Virus record (IMG/VR): IMGVR_UViG_3300047311_000826
Coordinates: 1-64,000 of that record
Source of the DNA: a virus
DNA: 64,000 nucleotides
Strand: one strand, 5' to 3'
Every line of letters starts with the position of its first letter. The stretch's first letter is position 1. Below, one piece after another: positions 15,953-64,000 of this stretch. The position numbers and the translations under genes are program-made. The notes below the pieces were generated by a model. That model had not been told where the DNA came from. It saw only the letters and a program-made list of their open reading frames with translations, and did not search any database.

Positions 15953-15975
15953 CCGCGTTCCTCCTATGTTCCAGG

Positions 15976-22639: not shown

Positions 22640-22650
22640 CCCCGGTTCAC

Positions 22651-23155: not shown

Positions 23156-23185
23156 TTGACAGCCGCTTCGTTAACTGGCTACACT
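23156..23185 (+). promoter_or_regulatory. sigma70-like promoter candidate for the 23.3-kb early gene block
   Basis: TTGACA (23156-23161), an 18-nt spacer, then TACACT (23180-23185). It lies about 100 nt upstream of the ATG at 23287. Confidence 0.45.
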
Positions 23186-23286
23186 CATACAGTTCTACCT
23201 ATGGTTGAAAGTCTTCGATGCCATACCGATCCAATGATATTATTTACGACCGTAGTTGGTGTTAGTTTGTTAGTGAAACCCTGAAA

Positions 23287-23736: not shown

Positions 23737-23753
23737 ACTACGGGAGTAAACCA

Positions 23754-29422: not shown

Positions 29423-29498
29423 GCGCGCCCGCACCAGTGTCCGCGTAGCGGACCTGGGGCGAAGCACGACCGGAGTAACCAAGGAGTGAAAGCATATG
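29421..29498 (+). repeat. conserved intergenic stem-loop element, copy B
   Basis: GAGCGCGCCCGCACCAG-(GTCCGCGTAGCGGAC nested hairpin)-CTGGGGCGAAGCACGACCGGAGTAACCAAGGAGTG..ATG. Confidence 0.65.
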
Positions 29499-49300: not shown

Positions 49301-52300
49301 CGGTGACGGGCTGCATGATATGATCGAGCAGCGTGTATTCGGCGCCGCTTTGGGCTCTGCGTAACCCCAGCCCATCACGTACCAGATCAACGAAACTACT
49401 CCATACGGACCGCCCGCGCGGACGCGGTTGCATACCAAGCGACGTCATTTTCTTACGGAACTTGTCCGACGCCACGAGGCTATTGGCGAAAGACCACAAG
49501 TCCGCGTTGGTCATCAGCATCGTATGCAACTCATGCTCGTTGCTTAGCGCATACATGATGCTTTCAGCCTGGCGTTTGGTTTCCGGGACATTCTTACCGA
49601 ACTCTCCCACGGCCAGCTTATCGCTGAAACCTTCCCTGAGCGCCTCCGCTATCGCGTGCAGGGCCTGAAGATCTTTATGTCCTGGGTCGTGCTGCCGTAA
49701 AGTTTCTATGTAATGGAAGAACGCCGAGTGCACCATCTCATGCAGCGCCGTCTCCAGGTGCGTCCCATGCTGATGCTCCAGGTCAAGGTTGACCATGATA
49801 TGTTCGAGGCCGGGATCCTGTTCGTAATGGCCGTAAGTCCGTTGTCTTATCCGGCCGATGTCCTTATCACCGATATAGCCCAGTTCGTGCCCTCGTTCCG
49901 CCGTTACTACGGGAATACCACGCGCCAGTTTGTATAGTTGCCGGGCCAGTGCCGCCAGATCAGGACGTTCCGCGATGACCAGCGGGTCCTGCATGATGTT
50001 GCGCGCCAGATCCTGGTCGGTGAATGGCACATCGTATTGTTCCGATGTGCGTATCGCGTGTTCCACGCCGGCGGTCAGGCGCGAGTCCGTTAATACCCGT
50101 AACGAATTGGCTGATGTGGGATCGATGCCCGTGGACGTTGGCGCGTGTTCCAGCGTTTCGCCGCCGCCACGCTTCGCCAGGCTCTCCCTGAACGCCGCGC
50201 GCGTGGCCATGGCCTGCGCCTGATCGGCGACGGTACCCACGGGGTCCACGATCCTGGCCCGCGCTTCCTTCAGCGCCGCGATGCGCTCGGGCGCGACCTG
50301 AGCCAGTCTGCCTTCCAGTATTTTGGTTCGCTCGGCGTATTTCTCGCGGGCCTCCTTCGCCGCTTCGGCGGTCCGGGGTTTCTGTTTCGCGCCCGGCATG
50401 TCCTTCTTCGCGCCCGCCAACAGGTGCGCGTCAAGTTGCTTCCGGTGCGTCTCGGCCAGCAGCGGGTTGCTCACGCGTTTGATCTCGGCGTCGAACGCGG
50501 CGGCCAGGCTCGTGGCATCGGCGTTGCGCGGTCGCCCCACGGTGCCCTTTTTGTCGAACTCGGCCTGTGCCTGTTCGACCGTCATGGGATCGGTCGGATC
50601 GAGTACCTTGTTGATGTAGTCGGCGGCCTTGCGCTCCTGGACATGCGCGACCGTGACGGGTTTGTTCTTGGTATCGAGTGCCATGGTCAATCCGGCGCTC
50701 TCACCCTCGCCACCGCCCACGGCGGTCTCCTCGATCCCTTCAGCGGACGTGGGCTTATCAACCTTGCCGCGCTTCTGTTCCTCCTCGCGTACGACCGAGG
50801 CTTCGCTACGCGTGGGTTCATCGCCGGTGCGCGTGACCAGACGCTCGCCCATGACCTTCTTGTGGAACAGCTGCGCCAGATCCTCGCGGGCTTTTTGCGT
50901 GACCTCCGTGCCGCCGGCGCGTGGCGCCATGATACGATGCGCGATATCGACCAGTTGCTCGCGCGAGCCGTTGCTCATGTGCACCAGGTTGCCCAGGTCC
51001 CGCAGTGCCTCCGTCATGGCCTTGCCCCTGGGCGTCCCTGGCGGCAGCCCTCCCATGGCCTGCTTGCGCACGGTCTCTATGTCAGCGAGCGCCTGGCCCC
51101 GCGCCAGTTCAGCGGCGCGCACGGTCTGTAGGTCATCCGTGGTCGGCGCGGCGGTCTCTTCCTCGCGCGCGACGTAGGCCTGGGGTCCGGCCTTCTTCTC
51201 CGGGATGACGACGGTGGGTTGCTTCTTGCGGCCCTTGGATGCCGCGACCGCCTTCTCGACGGCGGGTTTCTCGGCCGGGACCGGGGCCTCCGGAGTTTTC
51301 CCGCTTTGTTTCGTATCGACAAGGGTCGCCAGTTCTTCCTCGGTGGGTCCGGCGGCCACGGTCTCGCGCGTCTTGCGTAACGTTTCGGCGGACGAGCGCA
51401 TGCGCGCTTCCAGATCGGCCTGGGCCGTCGAAGGGCGCTCGGTAGCCGGTGCCGAAGGGAGTGAAGTCTCCGGCACCGGCGGAGCCACGGTTTCCCTCGG
51501 GGGAACCAACCCCTCGGACCGCTCTGGGCGTGATGCGGGAACGCCCGGCTCGACGGTAGAGGTTGGCGGAGTCGGTGTCGACGCCGCTTTACGCCGCTCC
51601 TCGCGGTCGTAGCGCGTGGCCACGTCGTTCGGCGACATGTTCTTAAGTTGTGTCGGCGACGCGCCGTATTCGCCGACCAGCACGTCCACCATCTCGGATT
51701 TTGTCTTGCCCTTGGACGGGCGCTCGCCCGGTGCCTGGGGTTTTACTCCCGGAGTAACCGGTGGTGTGGACTCTGGTGGCGCGGCCCCACCGCCGCCGCG
51801 TGGAGCGGCTGGCGGTGGCTCCACGGGTGTGTTGGGTGGCGGCGGTTCACGCGGGAACATCTCGCCCTGCGTGGGCGCTGGCGGACGCACCTGGGTCGTG
51901 GGGTCGAACAGGTTGCCTTGCGATGCTTCCGGTGGGAGCCCTGGCTGCACGCCGGCTATGGCCGGCTCGCGCGGCGCTTGCCCCGCGCCCGCCTGACCCT
52001 CGGTGAACATCTCGCCCTGGCCCGACATGCCGGGCAGCATGCCCTGGCCCGGCGTCGTGGGGTCGAACGCCGGAGGTGGCGGTGGCGGCGGTGGCCCCAG
52101 CGCCTCGCCCAGTGCCGCCACCGCGTCGGGTGGCACGCCCTCGGGGGGTCTGACCTGGGGTGCTTCCGGTCTGACCGGGTGCAGCGCGCCACCGGCGGCG
52201 CCTATGACCGCGCCCGTCAGCGCGCCGCTGGCGACACCCCGCGCGATGGCACCCTGGTCGAACTCCTGCCGCGTGCCGATGCCCTGCTGGAACTGCTGAC

Positions 52301-53426
52301 CGATGGCTACGTTGGCGCCGCCCTGGCCGCCCATGAGCGCCGCGCCCTCGCCACCCCCCACCACCGCGCCCAGCAGGCGCCCCTTGCCACCCAGCTTGCC
52401 CAGCACGCCCCTGGCGGCCAGGCTCATGGCGCCCTGACCAGCCGCCGCGCCGACCAGTGCCGCCTCCAGCATCATCGGGTCGATGGCCTGCTTTTTCAGC
52501 AACTCCTTCGCTTCGGTGTCGGAATAACCGCCGCGCCGCATCTCGGCGTAGGCCGGCGACTGCATCATCGTGGCTTCGGGCGTGTTCTTCAGCGTCTCGA
52601 CGGCGCTGTTGTACTGCTCGCCCATGTTCTGCAGGCCGAACGTGCCCATCTCGCCGACGACGCCACCCGCTCTGGCGACCTTCGTCGCCGCGCCCACCAG
52701 TGACATCGCCTTGATCGCCAACCTGCCCACCAGGGCGGCGGGCAGCAGCGTCATGGCGATGTCGGGGATCAGGTTGATCGCGTTGGCGCGCATGTAGGTA
52801 AGGTAGCCAACCTCGCCCGGCGTCGGGATGTGGTTACCCTGCGCGTCGACACCGCCGAACATCGAGGCCGACAGGCCACGTTTCAGCGATGGCGAGCCTT
52901 CCTCAAGCAGCTTGTCCATCCACTGGCTGACGTTGTCGCGCTGCTGGTCGGTCCATGCCTTGGTCGACGGGTCGGCGCCGACCTTGTCCTCGAAGTAGCG
53001 CGCGGCGCCCAGCACGCCTTCGAGCGCGCCGCCGCCACCATGCTGGATCGTAGTCCACAGGTCGCCGAAGAACCCCCGCTCGCGCGACTCGTCGCTGACA
53101 CCCGAGTGGCCATACGTCTCGCCCGGCGTGGCATCCCTGGCCTCATCCAGGCTGAGCGTGCGATAGCGCGGTGTTGTTGGTGTCGGAAGCGCGGTGCGCG
53201 GCAGCGCACCGGGTTGCTCTGGAGTGGGCCGTGTCGGGATGGGCTGCGCGTATGGCTGCGTGAAAGCCTGTGTCGTGGGCAGGCCCGTGGGCTGGCCGCC
53301 GTAGCCGCCCTGCGACGGGAGGAACTGGCGGTTGAAGTCATTCTGGAACGCGACGTCGTACTGACTGGGTTGCTCTTCGGGCTCTGGCTCACGCGTGAGC
53401 GTGTCGGTGTTCGGGGCGAAGGCCAT
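46338..53426 (-). CDS. giant (2362 aa) multidomain virion or ejection protein with an HExxH metallopeptidase-like motif
   Basis: ORF track. Pro/Gln-rich N-terminus, Gly/Ala-rich hydrophobic segments, a roughly 250-aa Pro-rich linker, ALHEMVHSAF (HExxH at 49728-49742) and a long helical C-terminal half. It lies downstream of the transglycosylase protein. Confidence 0.75.
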   Translation of the reverse strand: MAFAPNTDTLTREPEPEEQPSQYDVAFQNDFNRQFLPSQGGYGGQPTGLPTTQAFTQPYAQPIPTRPTPEQPGALPRTALPTPTTPRYRTLSLDEARDATPGETYGHSGVSDESRERGFFGDLWTTIQHGGGGALEGVLGAARYFEDKVGADPSTKAWTDQQRDNVSQWMDKLLEEGSPSLKRGLSASMFGGVDAQGNHIPTPGEVGYLTYMRANAINLIPDIAMTLLPAALVGRLAIKAMSLVGAATKVARAGGVVGEMGTFGLQNMGEQYNSAVETLKNTPEATMMQSPAYAEMRRGGYSDTEAKELLKKQAIDPMMLEAALVGAAAGQGAMSLAARGVLGKLGGKGRLLGAVVGGGEGAALMGGQGGANVAIGQQFQQGIGTRQEFDQGAIARGVASGALTGAVIGAAGGALHPVRPEAPQVRPPEGVPPDAVAALGEALGPPPPPPPPAFDPTTPGQGMLPGMSGQGEMFTEGQAGAGQAPREPAIAGVQPGLPPEASQGNLFDPTTQVRPPAPTQGEMFPREPPPPNTPVEPPPAAPRGGGGAAPPESTPPVTPGVKPQAPGERPSKGKTKSEMVDVLVGEYGASPTQLKNMSPNDVATRYDREERRKAASTPTPPTSTVEPGVPASRPERSEGLVPPRETVAPPVPETSLPSAPATERPSTAQADLEARMRSSAETLRKTRETVAAGPTEEELATLVDTKQSGKTPEAPVPAEKPAVEKAVAASKGRKKQPTVVIPEKKAGPQAYVAREEETAAPTTDDLQTVRAAELARGQALADIETVRKQAMGGLPPGTPRGKAMTEALRDLGNLVHMSNGSREQLVDIAHRIMAPRAGGTEVTQKAREDLAQLFHKKVMGERLVTRTGDEPTRSEASVVREEEQKRGKVDKPTSAEGIEETAVGGGEGESAGLTMALDTKNKPVTVAHVQERKAADYINKVLDPTDPMTVEQAQAEFDKKGTVGRPRNADATSLAAAFDAEIKRVSNPLLAETHRKQLDAHLLAGAKKDMPGAKQKPRTAEAAKEAREKYAERTKILEGRLAQVAPERIAALKEARARIVDPVGTVADQAQAMATRAAFRESLAKRGGGETLEHAPTSTGIDPTSANSLRVLTDSRLTAGVEHAIRTSEQYDVPFTDQDLARNIMQDPLVIAERPDLAALARQLYKLARGIPVVTAERGHELGYIGDKDIGRIRQRTYGHYEQDPGLEHIMVNLDLEHQHGTHLETALHEMVHSAFFHYIETLRQHDPGHKDLQALHAIAEALREGFSDKLAVGEFGKNVPETKRQAESIMYALSNEHELHTMLMTNADLWSFANSLVASDKFRKKMTSLGMQPRPRGRSVWSSFVDLVRDGLGLRRAQSGAEYTLLDHIMQPVTDIAQRAAKFNEKYLHPDPRLRADSAPLAWSAHEAFGERASHVAERTLDAVGDNLKPGAFRNLLSTIHFDRLIDRFRSKFQDGDVNHAVAIRTAQEHAQVASDRFLRKFAPRFAEVARELVKHDDVAELMNDAGYARAALGTREADANAHLTTPDERAQLSALQSRFDAMTPEKQALYVKTRDLLTEKYAVERQAVADNLVNRFMPNATDAEKALMRHTMASKERLDAFLSDPDNAAIAQDHKRIARGMAKLTRMGFVDGDYFPMRRYGDFVVEYGGQPGDPGYGVQFFEKPSEAAAFRNKQLADGVADVQDVRERNDIVAQRQMRLSPVVDEMIAAVRRDPALRAHANALEEMAAHLQMQYASGQERATARRRYVAGASKDVARALGTDLQASGRRIGTIMHGGERDAAFERMKAFNDQRAGAGDGDSVLRDQLYHELRKRFQNGDELNHAGGFALARKVSAFGYAQSMMSLSRVAVEAAEMHMKMAVFIGARHGFGRAALELSRSLKDLAPSIIGKGARNTLDALIGKPLSSVNYDFAEMAKQRLLTRGYDGSEVNRFFKHFTDLGLFGNTEAASLRELSRPTTAGNLWDRFLEISSATTHASDEMSRISGAWAAFRTARGKGEGIKDAMDFAENTLRKAPNYSVANRARITTEKGMFGRAAAPIMQFKQYGLNETWLIANLMRDSFGKGVDPAVRKEAFLQFTGTVMMHSLMAGALTWVADPVRYLGGAYDLATGHKPKDRVLEMRQWLAKTIGPTLGEIVGQGVPHLFGADMSHRLGVNNMLNIPQLNGYSPKDFAEFGGHLMLGAAGEDVGSIVSGMAKMMDGELRGGAVAMLPRILRDPVKAYGLATKGAVDARGKQILAPSKISPLDVAYQAVGIAPSSVSEARMGRQAIVQARDHMNETRSRLVQRWLEADPGDRAAVMSDIRRFNADGNVNFGSKITHDQLLQQLNERRKGTLHPGAFGLRLPKAGERQLMETGSFANH

Positions 53427-53429
53427 GGC

Positions 53430-56400
53430 TCATGCCACCCGTCGCCTGGGCAGCCCGGTCAGGTCCTGGCCGTAGCCGGATTGTAGCGCGCCATAGGTCC
53501 CGGCGCCCGCGCCGATGCCCGTGTTCTGGGGGTTGACCACCGACGGCATCATGTCGGGCGCGCCACCCGTGGGACGTGCCGGTGATAGCGGCGTGGGCGT
53601 CAGCGCCGGAGCTGGTACGCCGGGGGCCCTCAAGGGTTCCGATCCGGCGAGGCCGATGAGTGCCTTCAACCCTTCGCCCGCCGCGTGAGGTATGGACTGA
53701 ACAATCTCACCTTTTTGGTTCTTGATGGCGTAACCCGGCGTGCCGTCCTTGGCGGTGACCGCCTGCAGGCTGAACTGACGCGCGGTCGGACTGCCTGGCC
53801 TCGCACCCGCCGATAATCCGTCGGCGAAATACTTGGCGGCCGGCGCGGCTATACCGGCGCCGCCTTCCGATGGTGTCATGATAAGCTGTTTGAAGATGGA
53901 CCCGGAACGCGCGTATTCCTCGGCGTCCGTCCCCGCCGGTATCTCTCCCGGCGGATAGTAATCCTTCACCATACCGGAGACGTCTTTATCCCGCTCGCCA
54001 CGAGCTTTATCCACCTCTGTCTTGTGCTGCAGCTGTTGTTGTTTCATCGCGATATCCGCGTTGGCTTTGTCTATCGCGGCCTGCGTCCGCAGACCCACGT
54101 TCTCCGCTTTTTGGGTTTCGATCTCAGGCCGCGCGTTCGCCCACCTGGCCTGCGCGTTGTGCAGGTTGATCTCGGCGTTGACCTTCTGATGATCCTGCAA
54201 GACCTTGGTATAGGTCTGCGGATTACGTAGCTCGATCATCTTCTGCGCCAGGACTTCGTGCGTGATATGTAACGGACTGCTGATCGGGTCGCCATGACTG
54301 CCGTCGGCGATTTTATAAGCCCAGATCTCGCCGTTCTTATCCATGCCGGCGCGCGCGTAGGCGCCGTCGGGGAAGAACGCGTATGATTTCAGCACATGGT
54401 TTATGGCGCCCTGCGTGTCGCCCGCCAGCAACGCCTGATCGGCGGCCATGAGATGCGACACCGCGCCCTGGTGGCTGACCTGGGCAACCCACTCCTGCGC
54501 CATGCCCGCCATTTCGGGACGCCCGCTGATGATCAGGTAGTGCTCCATCGCCGACTGCATGCCGCGCCAACGGTCGGTGTCGCCCAGCCCGGCGGGACCG
54601 GACTGCTGCAGCTTCTCCAGCACCCCGTCCGGCCCGGCCGCCGCGTTCGCCGCCACCAGTTCCGGCACGTTGTAGGGTTTATGCTCCGGCGTGCCACCGG
54701 GAACCATGGCCGTGGTGAGCTGCGTGGTGGGGAACATGGTCTTCATGTTCTGCACCTGGTCCGCGCGCTCCACGCTGCTGGCGGCGTAACCGTCCCAACC
54801 CATGCGCGCCACGTCTGGCAGGCGATGCGGCCCAGCCCGATAGGCGAACGCGGCCTGCACCGTGTTGTAACCGAGGCCACCGAAAGTACTGTCGCCCGTC
54901 GCCAGGTATTTATAATATCGCACACCGAGACGCAGGCTGTCGTAATCGTCCAGCGGGTTCAGTTCGTGCCGGGGGTCGATAAGGTCTCGCGTATCGCCTA
55001 TGACCTGCGTTAATCCTTTCGCGTCGGTGACGACGCCATTCTTCCCCGTGCCATGGGTAAGCCCTGACTTCCACTGGCTCTCGCGCTCGATGGTCGCCGC
55101 CATGAACGCGCGGTCGAGGCCCTGGGCACCCTCGGCCTGAATGGCCTTGTCCATCAGGGCCAGCTTGTCGGGATGCGCGTGCTCGGCGCGCCGCAAGGCG
55201 CCGTAATCCACGGGTGGCGCCAGCAAGGGTGGCGTGGCCTGCGACTGCTCGACCGTTCCGCCGGTGCCCGCGACCACGACCGGACCCGGTGGCGGGTGCG
55301 CCGGCGCACCCGCCGTGGGTGGTTGCGCGGGTGTGAGCGCGGTCGGTTGCGCGGTGGCGGGCGCGGCGGGCGCGGCCGGGGGCGGTTGCGATGGTGGCGG
55401 GATCTGCACCGGTGTGTTCGAAGCGGCGGTGCCGACCGGGGCCGGGGGCGCGTATGCCAGGCTGGTGGGTTGCTCCTGACCCGTGGGCTCGGCGGCCTGC
55501 GCGGACCCTATCGGGTTGAGCATCCCCATGAGGCGTCCGCCCAGGGACGGCGGCCCGGCCGCCAGCGGCACGCGCCCGCCCGGCGTTCCAGGAGTACCTC
55601 CCGGCACGGCGGGGTTGCCAGGGTTGAACGGCGCGCCCTGTTGCGGTGGCGGCGTGTAAGGCTGACCCGGTTGCGTGCGGGAGATCGGCGCGTTCGGATC
55701 CTGCATGGTCTGGTAGGGCGGTGGCGGTCCGGAGGGAGACCCCGGCGGACCGGCGACGCCCGCCGCGTTGTAAGGCGTGCCAGACATCTGCGATTGCGCG
55801 GGCGGATAGACCGTAGCACCTATGGGTGCGTTAGTGATCCCGCTCCGACCCGCCCACGCGCTGGGGCTTGTGCCCAGGCCCAGACTGGCACCCACGGGTG
55901 CCGGCGGATACACAGGCGCGCCCGAGGGAGAACCCGGTGCGCCTTGCACACCCGCCGCGTTATAGGGCGAACCCGACATCTGCGTCGGCGGCTGCGACAT
56001 AACGCCGACAGCGGGACCCGAGGGAGAACCTGGCTTACCCGGCACACCCGCCGCGTTATAGGGCGAGCCCGACATCTGTGATTGCGGCCGGGGAAGTCCC
56101 GTCGATACGTCGTAGCCACCGTAAGGCAGCGTGCCGTTATCCGTCCTGAATGTTCCGTTCGGCCGGTTCAGCGTCGCGTCCGAAGGATAAACCGATGGTG
56201 GTCGCGCACCTCCCGTGGTCGTAGGCGTCAGCCCCGGCTCGACATCGCCCGGTCCCGGCTCGCCACCCGTCGGTCCGCTCTCGGTGGGTTTGGCGCTGAC
56301 CGGCCCGGCCGGTAACGTGGTTTGCGCCGGCGCTCCCGGACCGCCCGGGGGTGCCGGGGTTTGCTGCGCGCCAGGGAAACCCTGCTGGCCGGGTACCTCG

Positions 56401-56579
56401 CTCACCCCGGCCTGTTGCTTCTCCAGCGCTTCCTGTTTCGCCCGATCTTCTTCGCGTTTCCTGTCGATCTCGTCGAGCGCGACCTGGCGCCGAACGCCCT
56501 GGTAGGAGTCGTACAGGTTGAAGATACTCTGCGCGCCCTTGAACAGCCCATCCGAGAACGAACCCAGTGGAAACGCCAT
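53430..56579 (-). CDS. internal virion or ejection protein with a lytic transglycosylase (SLT) domain
   Basis: 1049 aa. AATIERESQWKSG...AKGLTQVIGDT...LGVRYYKYL gives the catalytic Glu-Ser, GLTQ and Tyr motifs (about 54780-55190). The N-terminal half is Pro-rich. Confidence 0.75.
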   Translation of the reverse strand: MAFPLGSFSDGLFKGAQSIFNLYDSYQGVRRQVALDEIDRKREEDRAKQEALEKQQAGVSEVPGQQGFPGAQQTPAPPGGPGAPAQTTLPAGPVSAKPTESGPTGGEPGPGDVEPGLTPTTTGGARPPSVYPSDATLNRPNGTFRTDNGTLPYGGYDVSTGLPRPQSQMSGSPYNAAGVPGKPGSPSGPAVGVMSQPPTQMSGSPYNAAGVQGAPGSPSGAPVYPPAPVGASLGLGTSPSAWAGRSGITNAPIGATVYPPAQSQMSGTPYNAAGVAGPPGSPSGPPPPYQTMQDPNAPISRTQPGQPYTPPPQQGAPFNPGNPAVPGGTPGTPGGRVPLAAGPPSLGGRLMGMLNPIGSAQAAEPTGQEQPTSLAYAPPAPVGTAASNTPVQIPPPSQPPPAAPAAPATAQPTALTPAQPPTAGAPAHPPPGPVVVAGTGGTVEQSQATPPLLAPPVDYGALRRAEHAHPDKLALMDKAIQAEGAQGLDRAFMAATIERESQWKSGLTHGTGKNGVVTDAKGLTQVIGDTRDLIDPRHELNPLDDYDSLRLGVRYYKYLATGDSTFGGLGYNTVQAAFAYRAGPHRLPDVARMGWDGYAASSVERADQVQNMKTMFPTTQLTTAMVPGGTPEHKPYNVPELVAANAAAGPDGVLEKLQQSGPAGLGDTDRWRGMQSAMEHYLIISGRPEMAGMAQEWVAQVSHQGAVSHLMAADQALLAGDTQGAINHVLKSYAFFPDGAYARAGMDKNGEIWAYKIADGSHGDPISSPLHITHEVLAQKMIELRNPQTYTKVLQDHQKVNAEINLHNAQARWANARPEIETQKAENVGLRTQAAIDKANADIAMKQQQLQHKTEVDKARGERDKDVSGMVKDYYPPGEIPAGTDAEEYARSGSIFKQLIMTPSEGGAGIAAPAAKYFADGLSAGARPGSPTARQFSLQAVTAKDGTPGYAIKNQKGEIVQSIPHAAGEGLKALIGLAGSEPLRAPGVPAPALTPTPLSPARPTGGAPDMMPSVVNPQNTGIGAGAGTYGALQSGYGQDLTGLPRRRVA
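55710..56084 (-). repeat. three copies of the peptide repeat QMSG(S/T)PYNAAGV.G.PGSPSG in the SLT protein
   Basis: The copies start at about aa 166, 198 and 262 of the 1049-aa protein. Read directly from the translation. Confidence 0.85.
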
Positions 56580-56581
56580 GG

Positions 56582-57319
56582 TCAGGTTACCCCCGCTTCA
56601 CGCCGGAGCCGGGCCAGGGAGGGCGCGATGGCGTCGATGATGACCTGCAACCGCGCGTCGTACTCGGCCCATATCTCCGGATGGTATTCTTTGAGATAGC
56701 CGGCGCGCCCCTCGCTCCACCACGCCGAACACCGCGCGCAATCGGGCGAGCCGGTCATGTGATCGTAAAGCCTGGGCAACGGCACGTTCTCGGAGCGTAA
56801 GTAATCCAGCACTTCCTGGTGCGTCCAGTCCAGCACCGGCAACCATAGCTCCATGCCGTCCGCGACCGCGCCCGACATGACAGGCAGGCGGGGCATGTCG
56901 GCGCGCTTGCTGCCGCGTATGATCAGCGTGATCCCGTCGGCGCGCATGCGCTCAAGCAGCGGCAGCATCAGGTTGGCGTAGCAGCAGTCGTATCGCGAAG
57001 AGAGCGCGCTTTTTGCCTCGCCCATGAGTCGGCCGACAGGATGATGCGAGTAAGGCATGAGGTCCGTTGGCAATCCGTTTGCCGCGATCCATCCTGTAAC
57101 GTTCGTTTCGATGCGAACGAACCGAGGGGCGAATGCTTCAACAAGCGATACGTTTTCTCGCATCTCGGGCAGAAGGTCGCCCGTGTCGAGGTGGTAAATG
57201 GTGATCTCATGGAGACAGTTCCTGAGGAGTTGGATGCACGCACGGCTGTCCTTGCCTCCCGAATAAGAGAGCCCGACCTTCTCGTGCCGGTCCAGCGGCG
57301 AGTAGTCCATCAACCTCAT
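56582..57319 (-). CDS. PAPS-reductase-family PP-loop ATP pyrophosphatase
   Basis: The start MRLMDYSPL makes an ATGA overlap with the upstream stop. The PP-loop is LSYSGGKDS. HLDTGDLLPE, and VLDWTHQEVLDYLRSENVPLPRLYDHMTGSPDCARCSAWW matches the PF01507-type C-terminal pattern (W...v..Yl....lp.n.LY..G..s.GC..C). Confidence 0.75.
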   Translation of the reverse strand: MRLMDYSPLDRHEKVGLSYSGGKDSRACIQLLRNCLHEITIYHLDTGDLLPEMRENVSLVEAFAPRFVRIETNVTGWIAANGLPTDLMPYSHHPVGRLMGEAKSALSSRYDCCYANLMLPLLERMRADGITLIIRGSKRADMPRLPVMSGAVADGMELWLPVLDWTHQEVLDYLRSENVPLPRLYDHMTGSPDCARCSAWWSEGRAGYLKEYHPEIWAEYDARLQVIIDAIAPSLARLRREAGVT

Positions 57320-57978
57320 CTGCGCCGCGCCCACCAGATGATCGGGCGCACCCCCGAGAAGATCCGGTCATGCAGATCCGGATCGATGAACATGGAGCGG
57401 AACACCTCGTTGCTGCCCTGGGGCAGCAGGAATGCTTCGAGGTCCCACCCGGCGACGCGGTTGACCACGCGCAAACTGTCGAACGGGATGAAGCGCGCGC
57501 CCAGATGTTGTAACGATAGCGCATCATCCTCGGCGCCGAAGCGGGCGCAGTCGAACACGAACAGCTTACCGCCCGGCCGCACCACCCGCCACGCCTCGCG
57601 CAGCGCGTGCACGAACCCGTCCGACTGGCACAGGGAATACAGGAACATGGCGCCGTCGAACGACGCCTCGTCGAACGGCAGCTCGTGCATGTCGCAACAG
57701 AACGTCGCCACGTCCGGCGGCGCCTGCGACAACTGGAACGAATTGTTGTTGACCAGCCAGAACCTCAGGTCGGGACGTAACTCCCGTAGTAAACGGACCG
57801 GCTCGCCGAACCCGCACCCGATGTCCACCCAGGTCGAGTCCTGGTCGGGCGCCATGTGCCCCAGCAGGATCGCCATGTGCTCGCGGTCGTCCTTGTCCAG
57901 CCGGCATCCCTGCAGCACGCGGATGCCCCTGGCGAGCGCGCCGCGCGACGCCTCGGTGAGTTTGTCCTGGTCGATCAT
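57316..57978 (-). CDS. class I SAM-dependent methyltransferase
   Basis: The start MIDQDK makes an ATGA overlap with the upstream stop at 57975. Motif I is WVDIGCGFG, post-I is LVNNN, and VVRPGGKLFVFD follows. No DPPY/NPPY-type DNA methyltransferase motif is seen. Confidence 0.7.
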   Translation of the reverse strand: MIDQDKLTEASRGALARGIRVLQGCRLDKDDREHMAILLGHMAPDQDSTWVDIGCGFGEPVRLLRELRPDLRFWLVNNNSFQLSQAPPDVATFCCDMHELPFDEASFDGAMFLYSLCQSDGFVHALREAWRVVRPGGKLFVFDCARFGAEDDALSLQHLGARFIPFDSLRVVNRVAGWDLEAFLLPQGSNEVFRSMFIDPDLHDRIFSGVRPIIWWARRR

Positions 57979-58844
57979 GTCGCGATGGCGATGGCGGCGA
58001 CACCGGCGGCGGCGCCCGCCAGCCCGCCCACGCCGGAGGCCTGGTTCTGCGCGATGGCGGTGTTGGCGTTGAACCCGGCCATGGAGTTCTGGAAGTTGGT
58101 GTTCATGATGTTGGCCGCGTTCATGTTGGAGGTGTTGCTCAGCCCCTGCCACTGCGTCGGCGTGCCCATCAGGTTGCCGTACGTCGACGATGTGTTCAGC
58201 CCGGCGTTGATCCCGGCGCCCCCCTGGCTGGCGGCACCCTGCCCGGCGCCCTCGGCGGTGCTGTAGGACTGCGCCACCTGACCAGGGTAGCCACGGCCGA
58301 TGTTGATCGCCTCGCCCTGCAGGGCCAGCCCGGTGGCTTCCGTCTGGTTGCGCGCCTGGGTCCCGGCGCCGGCCTGGGCGGCGGCCTGCTGGATGCGGGC
58401 GCCCAGGTCGAGCGCGCCGTAGCGGGCCTGGCTGGGGTCGATGTTGAACCCCTCCAGGGTCTGCAGCGCGGCGTTGCGCTGACCCGAGAAGGCGTTGGCC
58501 ACGTCGGCCTGCGCCGCCGCCGAGCGCTGGTCCGCCCGTCCCGGCGTGTTGTAGTCCTGAGCCTGTTTGGCGAACGCGCCTTCCATGGGCCGGTAGGTTT
58601 TCTCGTAGTATTGCTGCGCGGTTTGCGCGTTGGCCATGTTCTGGCGTTGCGCGTCCATCGACAGGTTCGACGCGTCCATCATGTTCTGCATGAACGCCTG
58701 GGTCCGGGGCGCCTCCTCGGCGTATTGCTGCTTGGCCCAGTCCAGCTGGTCTTTCGATGTCTGCGCGCCGATCTTCGCCGCCTCCAGCGAGGATGCCGAC
58801 ACCGCCGAATAGTCCGGTGGAGCGGGCGCCCGGCCCTTACTCAT
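57975..58844 (-). CDS. internal virion protein candidate (289 aa), Gln/Ala/Asn-rich with a hydrophobic C-terminus
   Basis: ORF track. The composition and the C-terminal GVGGLAGAAAGVAAIAIAT are typical of podovirus ejection proteins. The call is positional. Confidence 0.5.
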   Translation of the reverse strand: MSKGRAPAPPDYSAVSASSLEAAKIGAQTSKDQLDWAKQQYAEEAPRTQAFMQNMMDASNLSMDAQRQNMANAQTAQQYYEKTYRPMEGAFAKQAQDYNTPGRADQRSAAAQADVANAFSGQRNAALQTLEGFNIDPSQARYGALDLGARIQQAAAQAGAGTQARNQTEATGLALQGEAINIGRGYPGQVAQSYSTAEGAGQGAASQGGAGINAGLNTSSTYGNLMGTPTQWQGLSNTSNMNAANIMNTNFQNSMAGFNANTAIAQNQASGVGGLAGAAAGVAAIAIAT

Positions 58845-59305
58845 GACACGTTCTCCGGCAGGAGGTTACTACGGTAGTGACGCGGCCTTAGATTGAGATA
58901 TCTGCACTGATCCCTGGTCATCTCCATGATCACCAGGTCCGACCCGTCGGGATAGACGTCGTCGATGACGGCGGCCACGGTCCAGCCAAGATGCTTGTTG
59001 ACGCGCAGCGCGACATGGTTGGTCGACTTCACCAGCCCCATGGCCTTGCGGCAGTTCAGTTGCGCGAACGCGTAATGGAAGATCATCCAGAGGAAGTCGC
59101 GCGTCACCCAGTTATCCTTCGACCCCGCCGAGTGCATCATGAGCGAGGAACCCAGATATCCCGTGAACACGACACCGCCCACGGTCTTCCCGTCGCGGTG
59201 CATGGCCACCACGTGGTCGGTCTTCTCGTTGAACACGCCCTCGATGCGTCCCATGACCCAGTCGCCGTCGCCGGGATGGTTGATGCGGATCTCGCGCTGG
59301 CTCAT
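58841..59305 (-). CDS. putative GNAT-family acetyltransferase (154 aa)
   Basis: ORF track. The layout ...VGGVVFTGY...HSAG...FHYAFAQLNCRKAMGLVKSTNHVALRVNKHLGWTVAAV... resembles a GNAT core. The similarity is judged by eye only. Confidence 0.4.
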   Translation of the reverse strand: MSQREIRINHPGDGDWVMGRIEGVFNEKTDHVVAMHRDGKTVGGVVFTGYLGSSLMMHSAGSKDNWVTRDFLWMIFHYAFAQLNCRKAMGLVKSTNHVALRVNKHLGWTVAAVIDDVYPDGSDLVIMEMTRDQCRYLNLRPRHYRSNLLPENVS

Positions 59306-59526
59306 TTCAGTTTCGCCCCGATATCGCCCTCGGTCACCAGGCCAAGCCTGACCAGGTCGTTCAATGTGACCGCGCGGTCCAGCGGATTACCGCGATGGCC
59401 GCCCAGCGACTCGACACCCTGGCGTAGCTGACTCGCCACCGTCACCAACGATTGCAGGTCGCTGATCGGCTGGCTGATCGAAGGCACGTTGAAGTTCCGG
59501 GAAACCTGGTTTGGGTTGAGCGCCAT
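59302..59526 (-). CDS. hypothetical small virion-module protein (74 aa)
   Basis: The start at MALNPNQVS overlaps the upstream stop by 1 nt (TGATG). It is the in-frame part of track ORF 59302-59664. Confidence 0.45.
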   Translation of the reverse strand: MALNPNQVSRNFNVPSISQPISDLQSLVTVASQLRQGVESLGGHRGNPLDRAVTLNDLVRLGLVTEGDIGAKLK

Positions 59527-61817
59527 CACACGGTCTTCAGTTCGCGCATCGTCGACGCGAGTTCGACGCTGTGGATCGAACATCTGGCGATGATCTCGAA
59601 CTGCCAGTTGAACGCCTTGCGCCCCGACGGGAAGCGGAAGATGCAGCGTGTCTGTTGCAGCCACTCCTCGTGGATCAGGTCCTGCGATGGACCGGCGTAA
59701 AGCCGGAACCGCGCGTTGACGCCGGGCGGCAAGGTCAGGTTCTCCATCGGCGTGTCGGGCGGCGGGACGACATCCGTCGGCGCCGGATCAAGCACCTCCG
59801 GATCGAGCGATACCTGGCAGGCGCCCAGCGACACCGGACTGGCGAAGTAGAACTCGCGCGACCGCCAGCGGTAGATCAGCGGCGGCGTGTCCATGCTGTC
59901 CCATTTGTACACGACCTCGTTGGCCATGATGTAGGCGTCGCCCGTGTAGACATCGTTCCAGATGCTGACCACGTCGACGAACGGCGACACCGAGCATATC
60001 CCCAGGCGTTCCTCGGTGTAGTCGATGAGGAAGCCCATGCCGGTGCCGTTGATCGCGAGGTATTGCGCGCGGTGGCGGCAGGCGACGAGGTTATCCCCGT
60101 GGAACCGCTTGATCCAGATCTCGCGCGTGAGGTTGCTGAGCGTCTGGTTCTGCGCGCCGTAGTAATTCAGCGCCACCAGACCATTGGGCGAGGAATAATA
60201 GACCCCCGCGAGGTCGGTCACCACCGAGCCGCGCGAGATGCATGGCTCCGGCGTCTGGATCTGCGCGAAGATGTACTGCGCCGGGGAATTGCCCGTGCCG
60301 GTGCTGGGGAACCCCGAGGTCAGCACGACCAGGGACTGCTGCCATAGCGCCAGCGCCACGATGGGATAATGCAGGCTCTGGTCGTAGCCCGCCGGCCACG
60401 CGTTGGGCCGGTTGGGTTCACAGAAGTGGATGGTGTTGCCGGTGAAGCCCACCAGCATGCCACCGGGGATCGAGATCAGCCCGTCCAGGTCTTCCACGGG
60501 CGGCGCGAAACTCACCGATGCCAGTATGTTGTTCTGCACCACCGTCGTGTTGGGGATGGTATCGTTGTAGACCGTGATGCCGATGGCCAGGTCGACCACG
60601 AAATAGAACGTGGCGCCGCCGGAGACCCCGGCAACGGTACGATACAGCCTGGTCGTGACGATGGGTGGGTAATTCTTGCCCGACGGCGTGGGCGGCGCCG
60701 AAGCGGGCAGGTTGGCCACGTGCCATACCGCGTCCGTGGCACCCGACTTCACGATGGAAGGCGCGGACGGCGAGCTCTCGGTGCCCAGCGAGTCGACGAA
60801 CGTATAACAGTAGGACCGGTCCTCCAGTGGCGCGTCGCCGCTGGGATCGTAATGCACGTCGAACGTGAGGCCCGAGCCCGTCCCGGAAATCAGCGTGGGC
60901 GTGATCGGATTGGCCGGCGTGGTGGTGTAGTGCGTGTCGGGCCCTATCGGCATCAGGTCCCTGGCGCCCATGTCGAACCTCACGGCCGCGCCGGTAGGCC
61001 CGACCGCTCCCGGTCCCGCGTCGATCAGGCGGACCGGCTCGTTCGCCGGGTTGACGGGATTGGTGTTGTAAGTGCCGGGTAACGGCACGTCGACCACCGA
61101 CACCAGGGCGCCGCCGACGACCTGCAGGTGCACCTCGATCTGCGCCCCCTCACCCGTGGTGCCCTGGAACAACGCCGACGCGGCGTCCGTGCCCCCGGTG
61201 CCGGCACTGGCGATGCCGACGTTCACCGCCTGCGTGGTGTTCAGCAGGAACCGCTGCGGCAGGTGGCCGAACGCAAGCACGCCACCAGGGACTTCCAGCA
61301 CGGTGTTCTGCGTGTAGTTGGCGCCTGGGGTCACGACGGTGGCGCCATTCGGGACGAGCGCCGGGATGCCGCCGCCAATGGGTGACACGACGGGCGCCGC
61401 CGCGTCCGACGGATCGACGGGGATGAACCCCAGGCTGTAGTGTGGGTCGCCATTTTTAATACGGTCGTAAGTATTCCACCAGGCGCCCGCGTCGGGCACG
61501 CCGGGCGGGTTGGTCCAGAACACCCGGTGCAGCGTGTCGTTGGCCAGAGGCGAGACGCAGACGCAGGAGAACTCGCTCGGCAAGGGCAGCCATTCCTCGG
61601 GGTCCCCAGGCTTGGGACCCGGCACGCGATAGGCCTTGCGTACCTCCCAGGTCGCCTTGCCGGACAGGTCGATGACCGGCTCGGGCTGCGGCAACCCGTT
61701 CAAGGGCCCGTGCGCCAGGTCGGTGTTGGTGGCGCGCGAAGCCATGTTGTCGGGCAGGAGCCTGGGCTCCCGCCTGGGTATCTCACCTCCGAAATCCTTG
61801 ACCGCGAACGCGACCAT
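59526..61817 (-). CDS. large tail protein (763 aa), possibly tail tubular B / nozzle-like
   Basis: ORF track. The call rests on size and on its position upstream of the ejection proteins (T7 gp12-like synteny). No diagnostic motif. Confidence 0.4.
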   Translation of the reverse strand: MVAFAVKDFGGEIPRREPRLLPDNMASRATNTDLAHGPLNGLPQPEPVIDLSGKATWEVRKAYRVPGPKPGDPEEWLPLPSEFSCVCVSPLANDTLHRVFWTNPPGVPDAGAWWNTYDRIKNGDPHYSLGFIPVDPSDAAAPVVSPIGGGIPALVPNGATVVTPGANYTQNTVLEVPGGVLAFGHLPQRFLLNTTQAVNVGIASAGTGGTDAASALFQGTTGEGAQIEVHLQVVGGALVSVVDVPLPGTYNTNPVNPANEPVRLIDAGPGAVGPTGAAVRFDMGARDLMPIGPDTHYTTTPANPITPTLISGTGSGLTFDVHYDPSGDAPLEDRSYCYTFVDSLGTESSPSAPSIVKSGATDAVWHVANLPASAPPTPSGKNYPPIVTTRLYRTVAGVSGGATFYFVVDLAIGITVYNDTIPNTTVVQNNILASVSFAPPVEDLDGLISIPGGMLVGFTGNTIHFCEPNRPNAWPAGYDQSLHYPIVALALWQQSLVVLTSGFPSTGTGNSPAQYIFAQIQTPEPCISRGSVVTDLAGVYYSSPNGLVALNYYGAQNQTLSNLTREIWIKRFHGDNLVACRHRAQYLAINGTGMGFLIDYTEERLGICSVSPFVDVVSIWNDVYTGDAYIMANEVVYKWDSMDTPPLIYRWRSREFYFASPVSLGACQVSLDPEVLDPAPTDVVPPPDTPMENLTLPPGVNARFRLYAGPSQDLIHEEWLQQTRCIFRFPSGRKAFNWQFEIIARCSIHSVELASTMRELKTV

Positions 61818-62270
61818 CTACTTTCGCCTGCTCCCATCCCTGGCGCCACGCGCCGCCGTCGGCACCTCGTCACCCAGCCAGATCCCAAGCACGGCGGCGC
61901 TGTCCACGGCATCCGAGTCCTGCATACCATACTGGTCGGGACGGAACCCGCGCGCCGTCTGCCCGGAACGGATATGCACGTAATAGAGCGCGGGATCACC
62001 ACGCGCGGGCACCTGTACCACGTCACCATTCGGATCGGTGTAGCTCGTCGCGGCACTCCCCGGTCGACCGTACCAGACATCGGGTGGTGGCACGGATGGA
62101 TCGAGGTTGGTGTCACGGATGACGATGTCACCGCTCGCATCACGTGGATCGCCGAGCGCGTTCCGCGCGGAACCGGGTGCATCGCGTTCAAGTTCTTCGC
62201 GTAACGCGAACACGCCCGCGACCCCACTGACGAGCGCGGTCACGGGGAACGTCATACGATAGTCGTTCAT
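61818..62270 (-). CDS. hypothetical tail-module protein (150 aa)
   Basis: ORF track. It abuts the 763-aa gene. Confidence 0.45.
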   Translation of the reverse strand: MNDYRMTFPVTALVSGVAGVFALREELERDAPGSARNALGDPRDASGDIVIRDTNLDPSVPPPDVWYGRPGSAATSYTDPNGDVVQVPARGDPALYYVHIRSGQTARGFRPDQYGMQDSDAVDSAAVLGIWLGDEVPTAARGARDGSRRK

Positions 62271-62461
62271 GTCGTCACCTTCTCGATGACGGGCAGGATC
62301 GCATCGATGATCCGCTCGACGTCGATCAACAGATCGACATCCGTGGCACCACGCCCAGGAATGACAATAGCGTCCCCCACCATTTCAGCGTGCGCACCAA
62401 GTTGGTTGAGGATCGCAGCGGTGATCGCGTCGTTGAGTTTGTCTCGGTCAGCGGTGGTCAT
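62267..62461 (-). CDS. hypothetical protein (64 aa)
   Basis: ORF track. 4-nt overlaps on both sides. Confidence 0.4.
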   Translation of the reverse strand: MTTADRDKLNDAITAAILNQLGAHAEMVGDAIVIPGRGATDVDLLIDVERIIDAILPVIEKVTT

Positions 62462-64000
62462 ATTGTCACCTGTTGCATCTCGGTGTCGGACAGGGCGCGG
62501 TTCCAGTAGGTCACGCGGCGTATATAGCCGGTTGGCATGGACTGGTATCCAACCTGATCACCAAAGAATTTAAGCGTTGTAATGACAGGAAGCGAACCAT
62601 TCCATGGGTTCAATGCCATCATGGTTCCACCAACCGCGCCCTTGGCTGTTGCCTGTTGATACGCGATTGCCGCCTTCCGCACGGCTCCAACTGCTATAGC
62701 GCCCATGACGCCACCAGATACAACACTACTTCCGTTCGCCGTGATTACCATGTTACCCGCGAGATTATCCTGTTGCACATAAAGACTGATGAAATCGGTA
62801 GTTACAATGGCTCCAGTCAAAGATGTGACATGAGAATATGAACCAATCGGTTCACCAAGATATACAAACTCAGCTTGCAACGTGCCGAAGTTCGCGTTGA
62901 ACCAACTCACGTTGGTTAGCATCGATGCGACATCAGCCGCCCTGGTCACCGACACCGATGTCGTTGGGATGTGACTGGTCGGGAACGCGCCAGCCTCGAC
63001 CTGATTGCCCCAGACCCATACACCATCGACGTTGTTACCCGCGAACACGGCGCTACCGGTGTTATCACAAGGAACGATATTCGCGATATAAGCACCAACG
63101 GTCGAGGTGGATGTATTGCTCGCGGAGCACCGATACCAGCCATTGCCCACCGCTTGGATTTGTCCCGAGCCATTTGGTGCCTGACTACTAACTGTTCCGT
63201 TCGACAGGTCGAACACCACCGACTGGTAAGTCGGGTAGGAACTGTTTTCCAGTCCTATCCTGCACAACTTAATTCCAGCCGCCTTCATGTAGACGGAATA
63301 CGTATAAGTCGTGTTGATCGCACCAGTCTGCTGGCCGACGAAAAGCTGATGCACGGTGTTCGTCGAACCAGGAATTAACGCCATCGCATCACTGGCGCCC
63401 GATGGGCTGACGCCGATGTTTTGCGTATAGCCATCCTGTGATGCGTTGGCTGGCTGATTGGCCGCCCAGTTCACGCTCGGAGCGACGACATTGGCGCGCT
63501 GTTCTTCGATCAGCAAACCTTGCAACACACCCGCTTTGTAATCCCAACGCGGCGCGTTGACCGCCGCCGTCTGAACCAATCCGCTGGCGTTGACATAGGT
63601 CGCGGTCGATGCGCGCGTGAACGTGATACGGCTGTCGAGCGTGCCGGGTGTCATGAAGTCGAGCGATAACGTGGGACCATCAAGTGTGGTCGCGCTGATC
63701 AGTTCGCTCTGGCTCAGTTGCCGGGGCCAGTAGCGCGTGCGTCGTGCCCACTGGCTCATGGAATATTGGTAAATCACCGGACCAGACAGGGTCAGCTTAA
63801 CAATCACGGGAAGCGACGCGGGAGGACCAACCGAATTGAAATCATGCGGGATCGCATTATGCGCCGCGTTAACATTTTTGTTGATGGCCCATGACATGGC
63901 GCCGCGTTGTGATACATCACGAAACACCGTCAGTGACGGGCCCCAGTTGGCGGCACCAACACCGGTCCCGCTGGCATTGACAGAAACCCCATTTATAGTA
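62458..64000 (-). CDS. tail or receptor-binding protein with ConA/LamG-like jelly-roll domain(s); the 5' end may lie beyond the window
   Basis: The track gives 62458-63927 (GTG start), but the frame stays open to position 63999. The C-terminus ..YIRRVTYWNRALSDTEMQQVTI, and an upstream ..RRTRYWPRQLSQSELISAT, look like the ends of two tandem LamG-type domains. Confidence 0.5.
   Translation of the reverse strand, partial: TINGVSVNASGTGVGAANWGPSLTVFRDVSQRGAMSWAINKNVNAAHNAIPHDFNSVGPPASLPVIVKLTLSGPVIYQYSMSQWARRTRYWPRQLSQSELISATTLDGPTLSLDFMTPGTLDSRITFTRASTATYVNASGLVQTAAVNAPRWDYKAGVLQGLLIEEQRANVVAPSVNWAANQPANASQDGYTQNIGVSPSGASDAMALIPGSTNTVHQLFVGQQTGAINTTYTYSVYMKAAGIKLCRIGLENSSYPTYQSVVFDLSNGTVSSQAPNGSGQIQAVGNGWYRCSASNTSTSTVGAYIANIVPCDNTGSAVFAGNNVDGVWVWGNQVEAGAFPTSHIPTTSVSVTRAADVASMLTNVSWFNANFGTLQAEFVYLGEPIGSYSHVTSLTGAIVTTDFISLYVQQDNLAGNMVITANGSSVVSGGVMGAIAVGAVRKAAIAYQQATAKGAVGGTMMALNPWNGSLPVITTLKFFGDQVGYQSMPTGYIRRVTYWNRALSDTEMQQVTI

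Follow-up and report, generated by a model that had tools for sequence, protein, structure and literature searches.

The window analysed here is a 64,000-nucleotide (nt) stretch of viral DNA, positions 1 to 64,000 of the IMG/VR record IMGVR_UViG_3300047311_000826. Its minus strand carries a block of eight open reading frames (ORFs; Table 1) that begins with a nozzle-type tail protein and ends with a giant protein. Within the block, genes for virion proteins are interleaved with genes for three predicted enzymes: a GNAT-fold protein resembling acyl-coenzyme A (acyl-CoA) N-acyltransferases, hereafter the GNAT, a class I S-adenosylmethionine (SAM)-dependent methyltransferase (MT) and a PP-loop protein of the phosphoadenosine phosphosulfate (PAPS) reductase family. 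The GNAT and MT genes flank the gene for g289, a virion protein of 289 amino acids (aa). We report that, in relatives of this locus, a Peptidase_S74 (S74) domain on g289 and a PP-loop gene behind it are alternative cassettes at one site, and we tentatively propose that the enzymes serve the maturation of g289.

A first reading from the sequence alone, here called the original prediction, had described the same eight ORFs in the same order; all were recovered at their coordinates, and profile searches backed the families given to the three enzymes. The junctions are visible in the sequence itself. The 763-aa and 74-aa genes overlap by 1 nt (TGATG), and 4-nt ATGA overlaps join the 74-aa gene to the GNAT gene, the GNAT gene to g289, g289 to the MT gene and the MT gene to the PP-loop gene. 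Gaps of 2 nt and 3 nt follow between the PP-loop stop and the 1049-aa start and between the 1049-aa stop and the 2362-aa start. The overlaps of 1 or 4 nt and the 2-nt gap had likewise been foreseen. Neither a promoter-like site nor a convincing terminator was found inside the block. The three enzymes belong to the late operon.

Table 1. Minus-strand late block of the window, followed by other features mentioned in the text
Feature	Position	Strand	Match or remark
Nozzle-type tail protein, 763 aa	59526-61817	minus	phrog_511, 1.1e-90
74-aa protein	59302-59526	minus	ORF call; small ORF likewise at this position in relatives
GNAT-fold acyl-CoA N-acyltransferase-like protein, 154 aa	58841-59305	minus	phrog_4470, 5.5e-36
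g289, virion (internal/ejection-type) protein, 289 aa	57975-58844	minus	phrog_8003 'virion structural protein', 3.5e-51
Class I SAM-dependent methyltransferase (MT), 220 aa	57316-57978	minus	Methyltransf_11, 5.5e-13
PP-loop/PAPS-reductase-family protein, 245 aa	56582-57319	minus	PAPS_reduct, 3.9e-14
Internal protein with lytic transglycosylase (SLT) domain, 1049 aa	53430-56579	minus	SLT, 21.9 bits (cut-off 21.3)
Giant protein with PLxRFG domain, 2362 aa	46338-53426	minus	NCBIfam NF032893, 1.4e-73 (residues 1635-2333)
Homing-endonuclease-like ORF, 316 aa	9635-10585	minus	GIY-YIG/HNH homing-endonuclease PHROG
Major capsid gene	10674-11615	minus	
446-aa protein	29496-30836	plus	DUF2201_N (putative metallopeptidase) and VWA-like DUF2201

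The g289 protein carries an N-terminal MSKGRAPAPPDY motif and, at its extreme C-terminus, a Gly/Ala-rich hydrophobic tail. The N-terminus of g289-type proteins nearly always reads Met-Gly-(Gly)-Lys-(Gly/Ser)...AP.PPD[YP], with Met-Ser-Lys in the window, and their middle region is rich in Gln, Ala and Asn. In BcepIL02 gp66 (L001), SopranoGao_9 (L009), PEp14_24 (L097) and several g289-type proteins from IMG/VR, a hydrophobic N-terminal helix precedes ...FKKGG-AP.PDP. The GNAT accompanies both N-terminal classes, that is, proteins with a Met-Gly-Lys start and those that start with a hydrophobic helix.

In every locus in which g289 is followed by a PP-loop gene, the protein ends exactly after the Gly/Ala hydrophobic segment. 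In divergent lineages, the protein in front of the PP-loop gene belongs to phrog_6121 or phrog_4287 and still ends in a Gly/Ala hydrophobic tail. A virion protein with such a tail, followed by the PP-loop gene, was found in ~30 of 35 PP-loop loci. In cultured relatives without the PP-loop gene, the g289 homologue runs on into a Peptidase_S74 domain, a self-cleaving intramolecular chaperone. The domain scored above the Pfam cut-off in PEp14, Itty13, PBC5, POI1126 and SopranoGao and below it in 45A6 and BUCT555, and the PP-loop gene is absent from all seven phages. The g289 homologue of Rhizobium phage TM3_14A has a different extension, which is not S74. No S74 domain was found on g289 in the loci that carry the PP-loop gene; the sole S74 match in GP4 lies in a tail-fibre gene.

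We examined the relationship between the two elements in an independent sample of 80 g289-type loci from IMG/VR, collected with a g289 alignment as the query, 76 of which had enough downstream DNA. S74 without a downstream PP-loop gene was found in 48 of the 76 loci and a PP-loop gene without S74 in 25; three had neither and none had both (Fisher p = 4e-17, uncorrected for the relatedness of the loci). In 24 of these 25 loci, 0-31 nt separated g289 from the start of the PP-loop gene behind it; in the other one the distance was 718 nt, and this locus had an MT match. In a rough neighbour-joining tree built from the g289 core, proteins of the PP-loop type occupied at least four places. When g289 was clustered at 70% identity, one of the 27 clusters mixed PP-loop-type and S74-type members.

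The exchange can be seen most directly in two sister phages, L126 and L140, which both come from metagenome 3300045988 and whose flanking proteins are 70-92% identical. The sole difference in the gene content of the block is the S74 domain in one and the PP-loop gene in the other. L140 encodes the GNAT, g289 with S74 (416 aa), a 95-aa ORF and a 393-aa ORF. L126 encodes the GNAT, a g289 of 340 aa that ends in ...GMGMMAF, the PP-loop protein (245 aa), a 105-aa ORF and the next ORF; the start of its PP-loop gene overlaps the g289 stop. Homology between the two phages resumes on both sides of the swap. Since these phages are closely related and carry alternative cassettes, the exchange looks recent. 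We conclude that one site is occupied by either of two cassettes, the S74 domain or the PP-loop gene.

A tblastn search of cultured phages returned PP-loop homologues only from Bcep22-like phages of Burkholderia (Bcep22, BcepIL02, DC1, BcepMigl, JC1 and CSP3), from Ralstonia GP4-like phages and from two outliers. The annotated order in the cultured relatives is virion protein, small ORF, acyl-CoA N-acyltransferase, virion protein, PAPS-reductase-like protein, virion proteins and a giant DarB-like protein. By tblastn, the nozzle-type protein, GNAT, g289 and PP-loop protein of the window, and then the giant protein, are collinear with the loci of BcepIL02 and GP4. The core arrangement is thus already known; it has been annotated for years in cultured phages and has stayed unexplained. 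The original prediction knew of no described function for the arrangement. This holds for the function, which is uncharacterised, but the layout had already been annotated in the Bcep22/GP4-type phages. It had also suggested a survey of synteny and had named a documented function of the trio in a characterised phage as a refuting outcome. The layout was found in cultured phages, compared with which the window has only the MT in addition; no MT homologue was found in cultured phage records.

The order of the window, including the MT, recurs in a large uncultured clade, many contigs of which are 62-67 kb long and across which the three enzymes share 44-68% amino-acid identity. This recurrence on many uncultured phage contigs indicates that the gene order is not due to chance. 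On one IMG/VR contig (L012), the GNAT, g289, MT and PP-loop protein are 99-100% identical to those of the window and several flanking proteins are 76-94% identical. Other members of the block are conserved as well. The 763-aa protein is 28-29% identical (tblastn) to the proteins at the equivalent position in BcepIL02 and GP4; its homologues are BcepIL02 gp63 and a 577-aa virion-associated protein of GP4, and in Bcep22-like phages they are annotated as 'head closure'. It would be the nozzle, going by what the JC1 and phi24B papers state on the GP4 and 933W homologues. Homologues of the 74-aa protein share 56-67% identity (L003-L005 and L013-L017), and the 1049-aa SLT protein keeps its position in L003-L005. 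The 2362-aa protein, which also has a weak LPD39 match, is syntenic with BcepIL02 gp70, the giant protein of GP4 and the 'PLxRFG protein' of SopranoGao; Bcep22-like phages carry a 'DarB-like' polyvalent protein in its slot.

Virion composition has been determined for the Bcep22-like phage JC1. Its proteome contains gp61 (nozzle-type), gp64 (the g289 homologue) and gp67-gp69, whereas gp63 (GNAT) and gp65 (PP-loop) are missing from it (PMC9144972). In the BcepIL02 record, the neighbouring proteins, including the g289 homologue gp66, are labelled virion-associated and the two enzymes are not; these labels are GenBank annotation.

The PP-loop protein matched PAPS_reduct (PF01507) with 53.5 bits at a cut-off of 22.5. 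The SGGKDS motif and the C-terminal CxxC pattern on which the original prediction had relied are present: none of 48 homologues deviates in SGGKDS (S20-S25) or in the cysteines C112, C113, C194 and C197. The protein also carries a DTG motif and an Arg/Lys loop. Its CC...CxxC pattern aligns to ECC...CAPC of PDB entry 7lhr_A, which was deposited as a phosphoadenosine phosphosulfate reductase. In adenosine phosphosulfate (APS) reductases, the CC...CxxC cysteines ligate a [4Fe-4S] cluster. An AlphaFold (AF2) model with a predicted local distance difference test (pLDDT) score of 95 had APS reductase 2goy as its best PDB fold match, with a template modelling (TM) score of 0.52-0.57; the top Foldseek matches were 2goy, 6vpu and 2o8v. 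The Foldseek check proposed earlier for this model thus recovered the APS/PAPS reductase fold.

Sulfonucleotide reductases are defined by the catalytic cysteine of a C-terminal ECG[LI]H motif, which forms a thiosulfonate intermediate. No cysteine follows Cys197 in the PP-loop protein of the window, and no invariant cysteine lies beyond position 197 in the 48 homologues. As the ECG[LI]H cysteine is missing, the protein is not a sulfonucleotide reductase. All NCBIfam matches fell far under their cut-offs, among them the CysH/APS-reductase models PRK02090 (32.9 versus 154 bits), TIGR02055 (27.0 versus 235.3) and TIGR00434 (25.3 versus 165.1) and the DndC model TIGR03183 (14.3 versus 290.4). The PADLOC match to DndC (E = 0.026-0.05) was confined to the PP-loop. 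Judged by its sequence, the protein is neither CysH nor assignable to DndC; its motifs fit a probable ATP-dependent adenylating enzyme with an Fe-S cluster. The closest cellular matches were contigs of metagenome-assembled genomes (MAGs) of Hyphomonadaceae (50%) and Fluviicoccus (43%) and a Burkholderia lata contig (38%). Apart from a few closer MAG or genome contigs, the nearest cellular relatives (L041-L096) are uncharacterised proteins of methanogenic archaea with ~25% identity, and the N-terminal part of the window protein matches archaeal PRK13795-type NCBIfam models far under the cut-off.

The MT matched Methyltransf_11 with 49.8 bits (cut-off 21.2), and its motif I (VDIGCGFG) and PGG motif (RPGGKL) are conserved in 45 homologues. 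As the original prediction had noted, motifs of N6/N4 DNA methyltransferases are absent, and those of C5 enzymes are absent too: neither [DNS]PP[YFW] nor PC/ENV occurs in the 220-aa sequence. The best PDB matches were small-molecule O-, N- and C-methyltransferases and RlmA. We therefore dismissed a role as DNA methyltransferase, from the absent motifs and the small-molecule neighbours in the PDB; by its sequence the MT should be of the small-molecule or protein type.

Gene fusions link the MT to the PP-loop protein. An exhaustive search of 1.84 billion representative proteins yielded 610 relatives, of which the top 150 were examined. An MT-profile search found MT/PP-loop fusions in 27 of these 150 representative clusters, 24 with the MT first and three in the opposite order. 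The MT-first fusions are 415-476 aa long; phmmer found ~20 of them, compared with the 24 found with the MT profile. The profile of PHROG 424 spans both window proteins, reflecting the fusion, and on one viral contig a g289 homologue is followed directly by an MT/PP-loop fusion. Fusion in both orders strongly suggests a joint pathway or complex, and the MT and the PP-loop protein probably act together. No fusion of a GNAT to the PP-loop family was seen, with no GNAT hidden Markov model (HMM) match in the 150 representatives.

Other domains are fused to the N-terminus of members of the PP-loop subfamily. Three proteins (P0243, P0255 and P0261) carry a metal-binding CxxCxxCC domain (PF03692). Four others (P0210, P0214, P0218 and P0239) have a domain of ~140 aa with an invariant GDC...H.VV...H[DN]P pattern, possibly a cysteine peptidase, for which there was no Pfam or PDB match; a search for related loci starting from P0210 found none. 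An HExxH domain in P0251 and P0273 showed only weak similarity to Peptidase_M41 (E 0.2-0.3). The motifs hint that the ~140-aa and HExxH domains may be peptidases, which we counted as weak support for the proposed maturation of g289. The surroundings of the MT also vary. A sub-clade (L005/L017) has an extra 204-aa ORF between the MT and PP-loop genes (L005 5285-5899) without a Pfam match. In variants in which the PP-loop gene lies beside the terminase gene, portal and scaffold genes are likewise downstream, and an MT is present in L020 and L023/24. In L023, a 77-aa hydrophobic ORF separates the MT from the PP-loop gene, and the opposite strand carries an ArdC-like anti-restriction gene (phrog_7245) a few kb upstream.

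The GNAT scored below the Pfam threshold (Acetyltransf_4, 15.4 bits; cut-off 24.3). Its AF2 model (pLDDT 93.1) matched SpeG- and Rim-type GNATs with a Foldseek probability of 1.00 and TM scores of 0.6-0.68; there were 455 PDB matches at E <= 0.001, and nearly all of the 50 listed were GNAT acetyltransferases. The GNAT fold is therefore clear, as the Foldseek check suggested at the outset was meant to establish. The CoA loop reads H-S-A-G-S-K-D-N-W, in which A60, G61 and W66 are invariant, and the position of the motif-B tyrosine is variable. The original prediction had named degenerate active sites as a possible outcome. The motifs of the PP-loop protein and the MT turned out to be invariant, but two catalytic hallmarks of the GNAT are non-canonical. 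Upstream of the g289 homologue, a GNAT HMM match was found in 78 of the 80 loci, and the GNAT is thus a near-constant partner of g289. A GNAT protein identical to that of the window also occurs on a 67,234-bp contig.

We favour, with a probability of roughly 40%, the explanation that the three enzymes are expressed late, stay out of the virion and act in the maturation of g289, the tail-anchored ejection protein whose gene lies between theirs. The GNAT would acylate g289 at its conserved N-terminal Gly/Lys motif. The PP-loop protein, with ATP-dependent adenylation and a probable [4Fe-4S] cluster, and the MT would form one two-step unit. This unit would work in the maturation or assembly of g289, with the C-terminal tail as its most probable target, and would replace in trans what S74 does in cis. 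Candidate chemistries are a thiocarboxylate, an amide or a methyl ester at the carboxylate; alternatively, the unit could drive a folding or assembly step with ATP. The S74/PP-loop exclusivity points to g289 as the specific client, and it gives specific support to one of the three roles put forward in the original prediction, post-translational modification of virion proteins. Further findings count in favour: the conserved order and translational coupling in the window, the uncultured clade, the Bcep22/GP4-type phages and divergent lineages; the fusions of the MT and the PP-loop protein and the invariance of their catalytic motifs; and the absence of the enzymes from a JC1 virion proteome in which the g289 homologue is present. 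A more specific version is unlikely to hold in full, namely that the PP-loop/Fe-S enzyme and the MT chemically mature a membrane-seeking C-terminal tail of the ejection protein, for instance by way of an adenylated carboxylate that becomes a thiocarboxylate, amide or methyl ester, replacing S74, while the GNAT N-acylates a Met-Gly-Lys N-terminus.

Several points weigh against the maturation of g289. We know of no PAPS-reductase-family enzyme that acts on a protein. S74 cleavage is predicted to leave a C-terminus (...MAF) identical to the one that PP-loop-type proteins already have as encoded; a chemical change there is hence not obviously needed. The loci share ancestry, and events that look independent could be overcounted if cassettes are exchanged by recombination. 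The PP-loop gene, with or without the MT, lies directly upstream of the large terminase gene in five of 35 loci (L020, L023/24 and L028/29). The GNAT is without the usual motif-B tyrosine and the canonical Q/RxxGxG motif, its activity being predicted only, and the peptidase-like fusion domains went unrecognised in Pfam and PDB searches. Finally, proteins of low copy number can escape virion proteomics.

The main rival, possible though doubtful, is nucleic-acid modification, another of the three roles in the original prediction, or anti-defence. The PP-loop protein would act in the manner of DndC, SspD or BrxP, perhaps with host IscS, the MT would be its SAM-binding partner and the GNAT would be independent; phage DNA would be marked late, before packaging, or a host Dnd- or restriction-type system would be interfered with. 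The superfamily is common to DndC, SspD and BrxP, the SGGKDS motif is canonical and the cysteines are present, and there are weak PADLOC and NCBIfam matches. A phage PAPS reductase is reported to promote Dnd evasion (Piel 2022, as cited in PMC13551039), and DndC is reported to bind SAM (noted in PMC10853773). The vicinity of the PP-loop gene to the giant polyvalent/DarB-like protein, the position of MT/PP-loop genes by the terminase in some relatives, with the ArdC-like gene near them in L023, and the absence of the enzymes from JC1 virions would also agree with it. However, nucleic-acid modification offers no reason for the strict exclusivity of S74 and the PP-loop gene. The score with the DndC model is negligible (14.3 versus 290 bits), APS reductases are the closest matches in both sequence and fold, and the MT is of the small-molecule type without DNA-methyltransferase motifs. 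No DndD/E-like partner was seen among the ORFs examined, the window not having been searched exhaustively for DndD/E. Among viral fold matches (BFVD), the model lies far from the sole Vibrio phage PAPS reductase (TM 0.59/0.39).

The JC1 paper discusses the GNAT and the PP-loop protein as 'moron' genes with speculative metabolic roles (PMC9144972). Accordingly, the GNAT, MT and PP-loop genes could be unrelated morons in a recombination-prone slot of the late operon, each with a host-directed or metabolic benefit and without a joint role in the virion. The slot is indeed variable: the MT may be missing or stand on either side of the PP-loop gene, L005 has its extra 204-aa ORF, and some lineages have the genes on the terminase side. 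Yet the position is kept across lineages whose flanking proteins are only ~25-40% identical, with 4-nt overlaps throughout, and a GNAT occurs in 78 of the 80 loci. Moreover, 25 of the 28 loci without S74 have the PP-loop gene and all 48 with S74 lack it, and the MT and PP-loop protein are fused in both orders. We consider independent morons quite unlikely.

Very unlikely, in our view, is the proposal of the original prediction that the enzymes are packaged and injected. As low-copy virion proteins entering with the DNA, they would modify host targets in the way of effector domains of polyvalent proteins. Their genes lie among those for ejection proteins and adjoin that for the giant PLxRFG/LPD protein, and RimI-like GNAT domains inside polyvalent proteins, as well as solo GNATs among late structural genes, have been described (Iyer et al. 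2017). The JC1 proteome, in which the neighbours and not the enzymes were detected, and the BcepIL02 annotation, which gives the enzymes no virion-associated label, disfavour packaging, and an oxygen-sensitive Fe-S enzyme would be an unlikely capsid cargo. A true auxiliary metabolic gene, encoding a CysH-type (P)APS reductase to increase sulfate assimilation in the host, would agree with the 'cysH' or 'PAPS reductase' annotation of many records and with the best structural matches, but was dismissed and is effectively excluded because the ECG[LI]H nucleophile and any cysteine after CxxC are absent, the PP-loop is of the canonical ATP type, the CysH/APS-reductase models give 25-33 bits where the cut-offs are 154-235, and MT fusion and virion-protein linkage have no place in sulfate assimilation.

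Taken together, what is new in these results is the MT partner with its fusions, the finding that the 'PAPS reductase' is no reductase, and the exchange of S74 and PP-loop cassettes. Phage genes labelled 'PAPS reductase' or 'cysH' are routinely counted as sulfur auxiliary metabolic genes, and the annotation of this subfamily should change. Should the more specific version hold, in which the enzymes chemically mature both ends of g289, many viral 'cysH auxiliary metabolic genes' would be virion-maturation genes, and the modified protein would correspond, in a bacterial virus, to the lipid-modified penetration proteins of animal viruses. If the chemistry is directed at protein, the PAPS-reductase family would gain a new substrate class. 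Bcep22-like phages are considered for therapy, and their PP-loop gene and GNAT are discussed there as possible fitness or virulence 'morons'. The locus also provides a testable entry into the maturation of podovirus ejection proteins.

Outside the block, the window (G+C content ~64%) contains two stretches of markedly lower G+C content, 22001-24000 (0.535) and 62001-64000 (0.565), against an average of ~0.64. No tRNA gene was found in the window, and a link to tRNA was dropped. The structural module is split between the ends of the window, with portal, capsid and tail-fibre genes in the first 1-16 kb and the tail protein, nozzle and ejection genes at 46-64 kb on the minus strand. This split (1-16000 and 46338-64000) is consistent with circular permutation of a genome that is slightly longer than the window. 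The homing-endonuclease-like ORF lies just downstream of the major capsid gene, before the next called structural ORF, and the 446-aa protein is encoded in the early or replication region.

The closest known systems are the Bcep22-like (Lessievirus) and GP4-like (Gervaisevirus) phages. They share with the window the order of nozzle-type protein, small ORF, GNAT, virion protein of ~280-330 aa and PP-loop protein, with identities of 41-47% for the PP-loop protein, 32-36% for the GNAT and ~28% for g289. Unlike the window, they have no MT, and their giant protein, annotated as DarB-like, is about twice as long. A further difference is the replication module, which in the window phage comprises Pol A, an SNF2 helicase and DUF927.

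The assimilatory APS reductases (CysH; 2goy and 7lhr) have the fold family, DTG, the Arg/Lys loop and CC...CxxC in common with the PP-loop protein, which in contrast to them has no ECG[LI]H cysteine, carries a canonical SGGKDS ATP-pyrophosphatase loop and reaches TM scores of only 0.52-0.57. With DndC, SspD and BrxP it has in common the PAPS-reductase superfamily, SGGKDS, an Fe-S cluster held by cysteines, which in the window protein is predicted, and a link to SAM that has been reported. The similarity to these proteins is, however, restricted to the PP-loop (E 0.002-0.05). The window has no adjacent DndA/D/E or BREX partners, and the genomic partner of its PP-loop protein is a virion protein. 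The best fold and sequence matches of the GNAT are RimI/J/L and SpeG, which are likewise single-domain proteins of the GNAT fold, and g289 resembles Rim substrates as a candidate target with an N-terminal Gly, Ser or Ala after removal of Met. The GNAT differs from Rim and SpeG proteins in its low identity (12-19%), its score below the Pfam threshold and the motif-B tyrosine, which is not conserved.

The original prediction had compared the block with T7 gp12-gp16. The general logic is alike, a nozzle followed by internal or ejection proteins, including a transglycosylase, and then a very large protein; beyond this the likeness is an analogy, the actual relatives being the T=9 podovirus module of the GP4/Bcep22/933W type. 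To our knowledge, T7 has no enzymes at these positions. The comparison that bears most directly on the PP-loop gene is that with Peptidase_S74 (PF13884) of phage fibres and endosialidases, which takes exactly its place at the 3' end of g289. The two have no sequence or fold relationship, S74 being a self-cleaving domain that acts in cis and the PP-loop protein a separate enzyme of the ATP- and Fe-S-type, and yet they may be functionally replaceable by each other.

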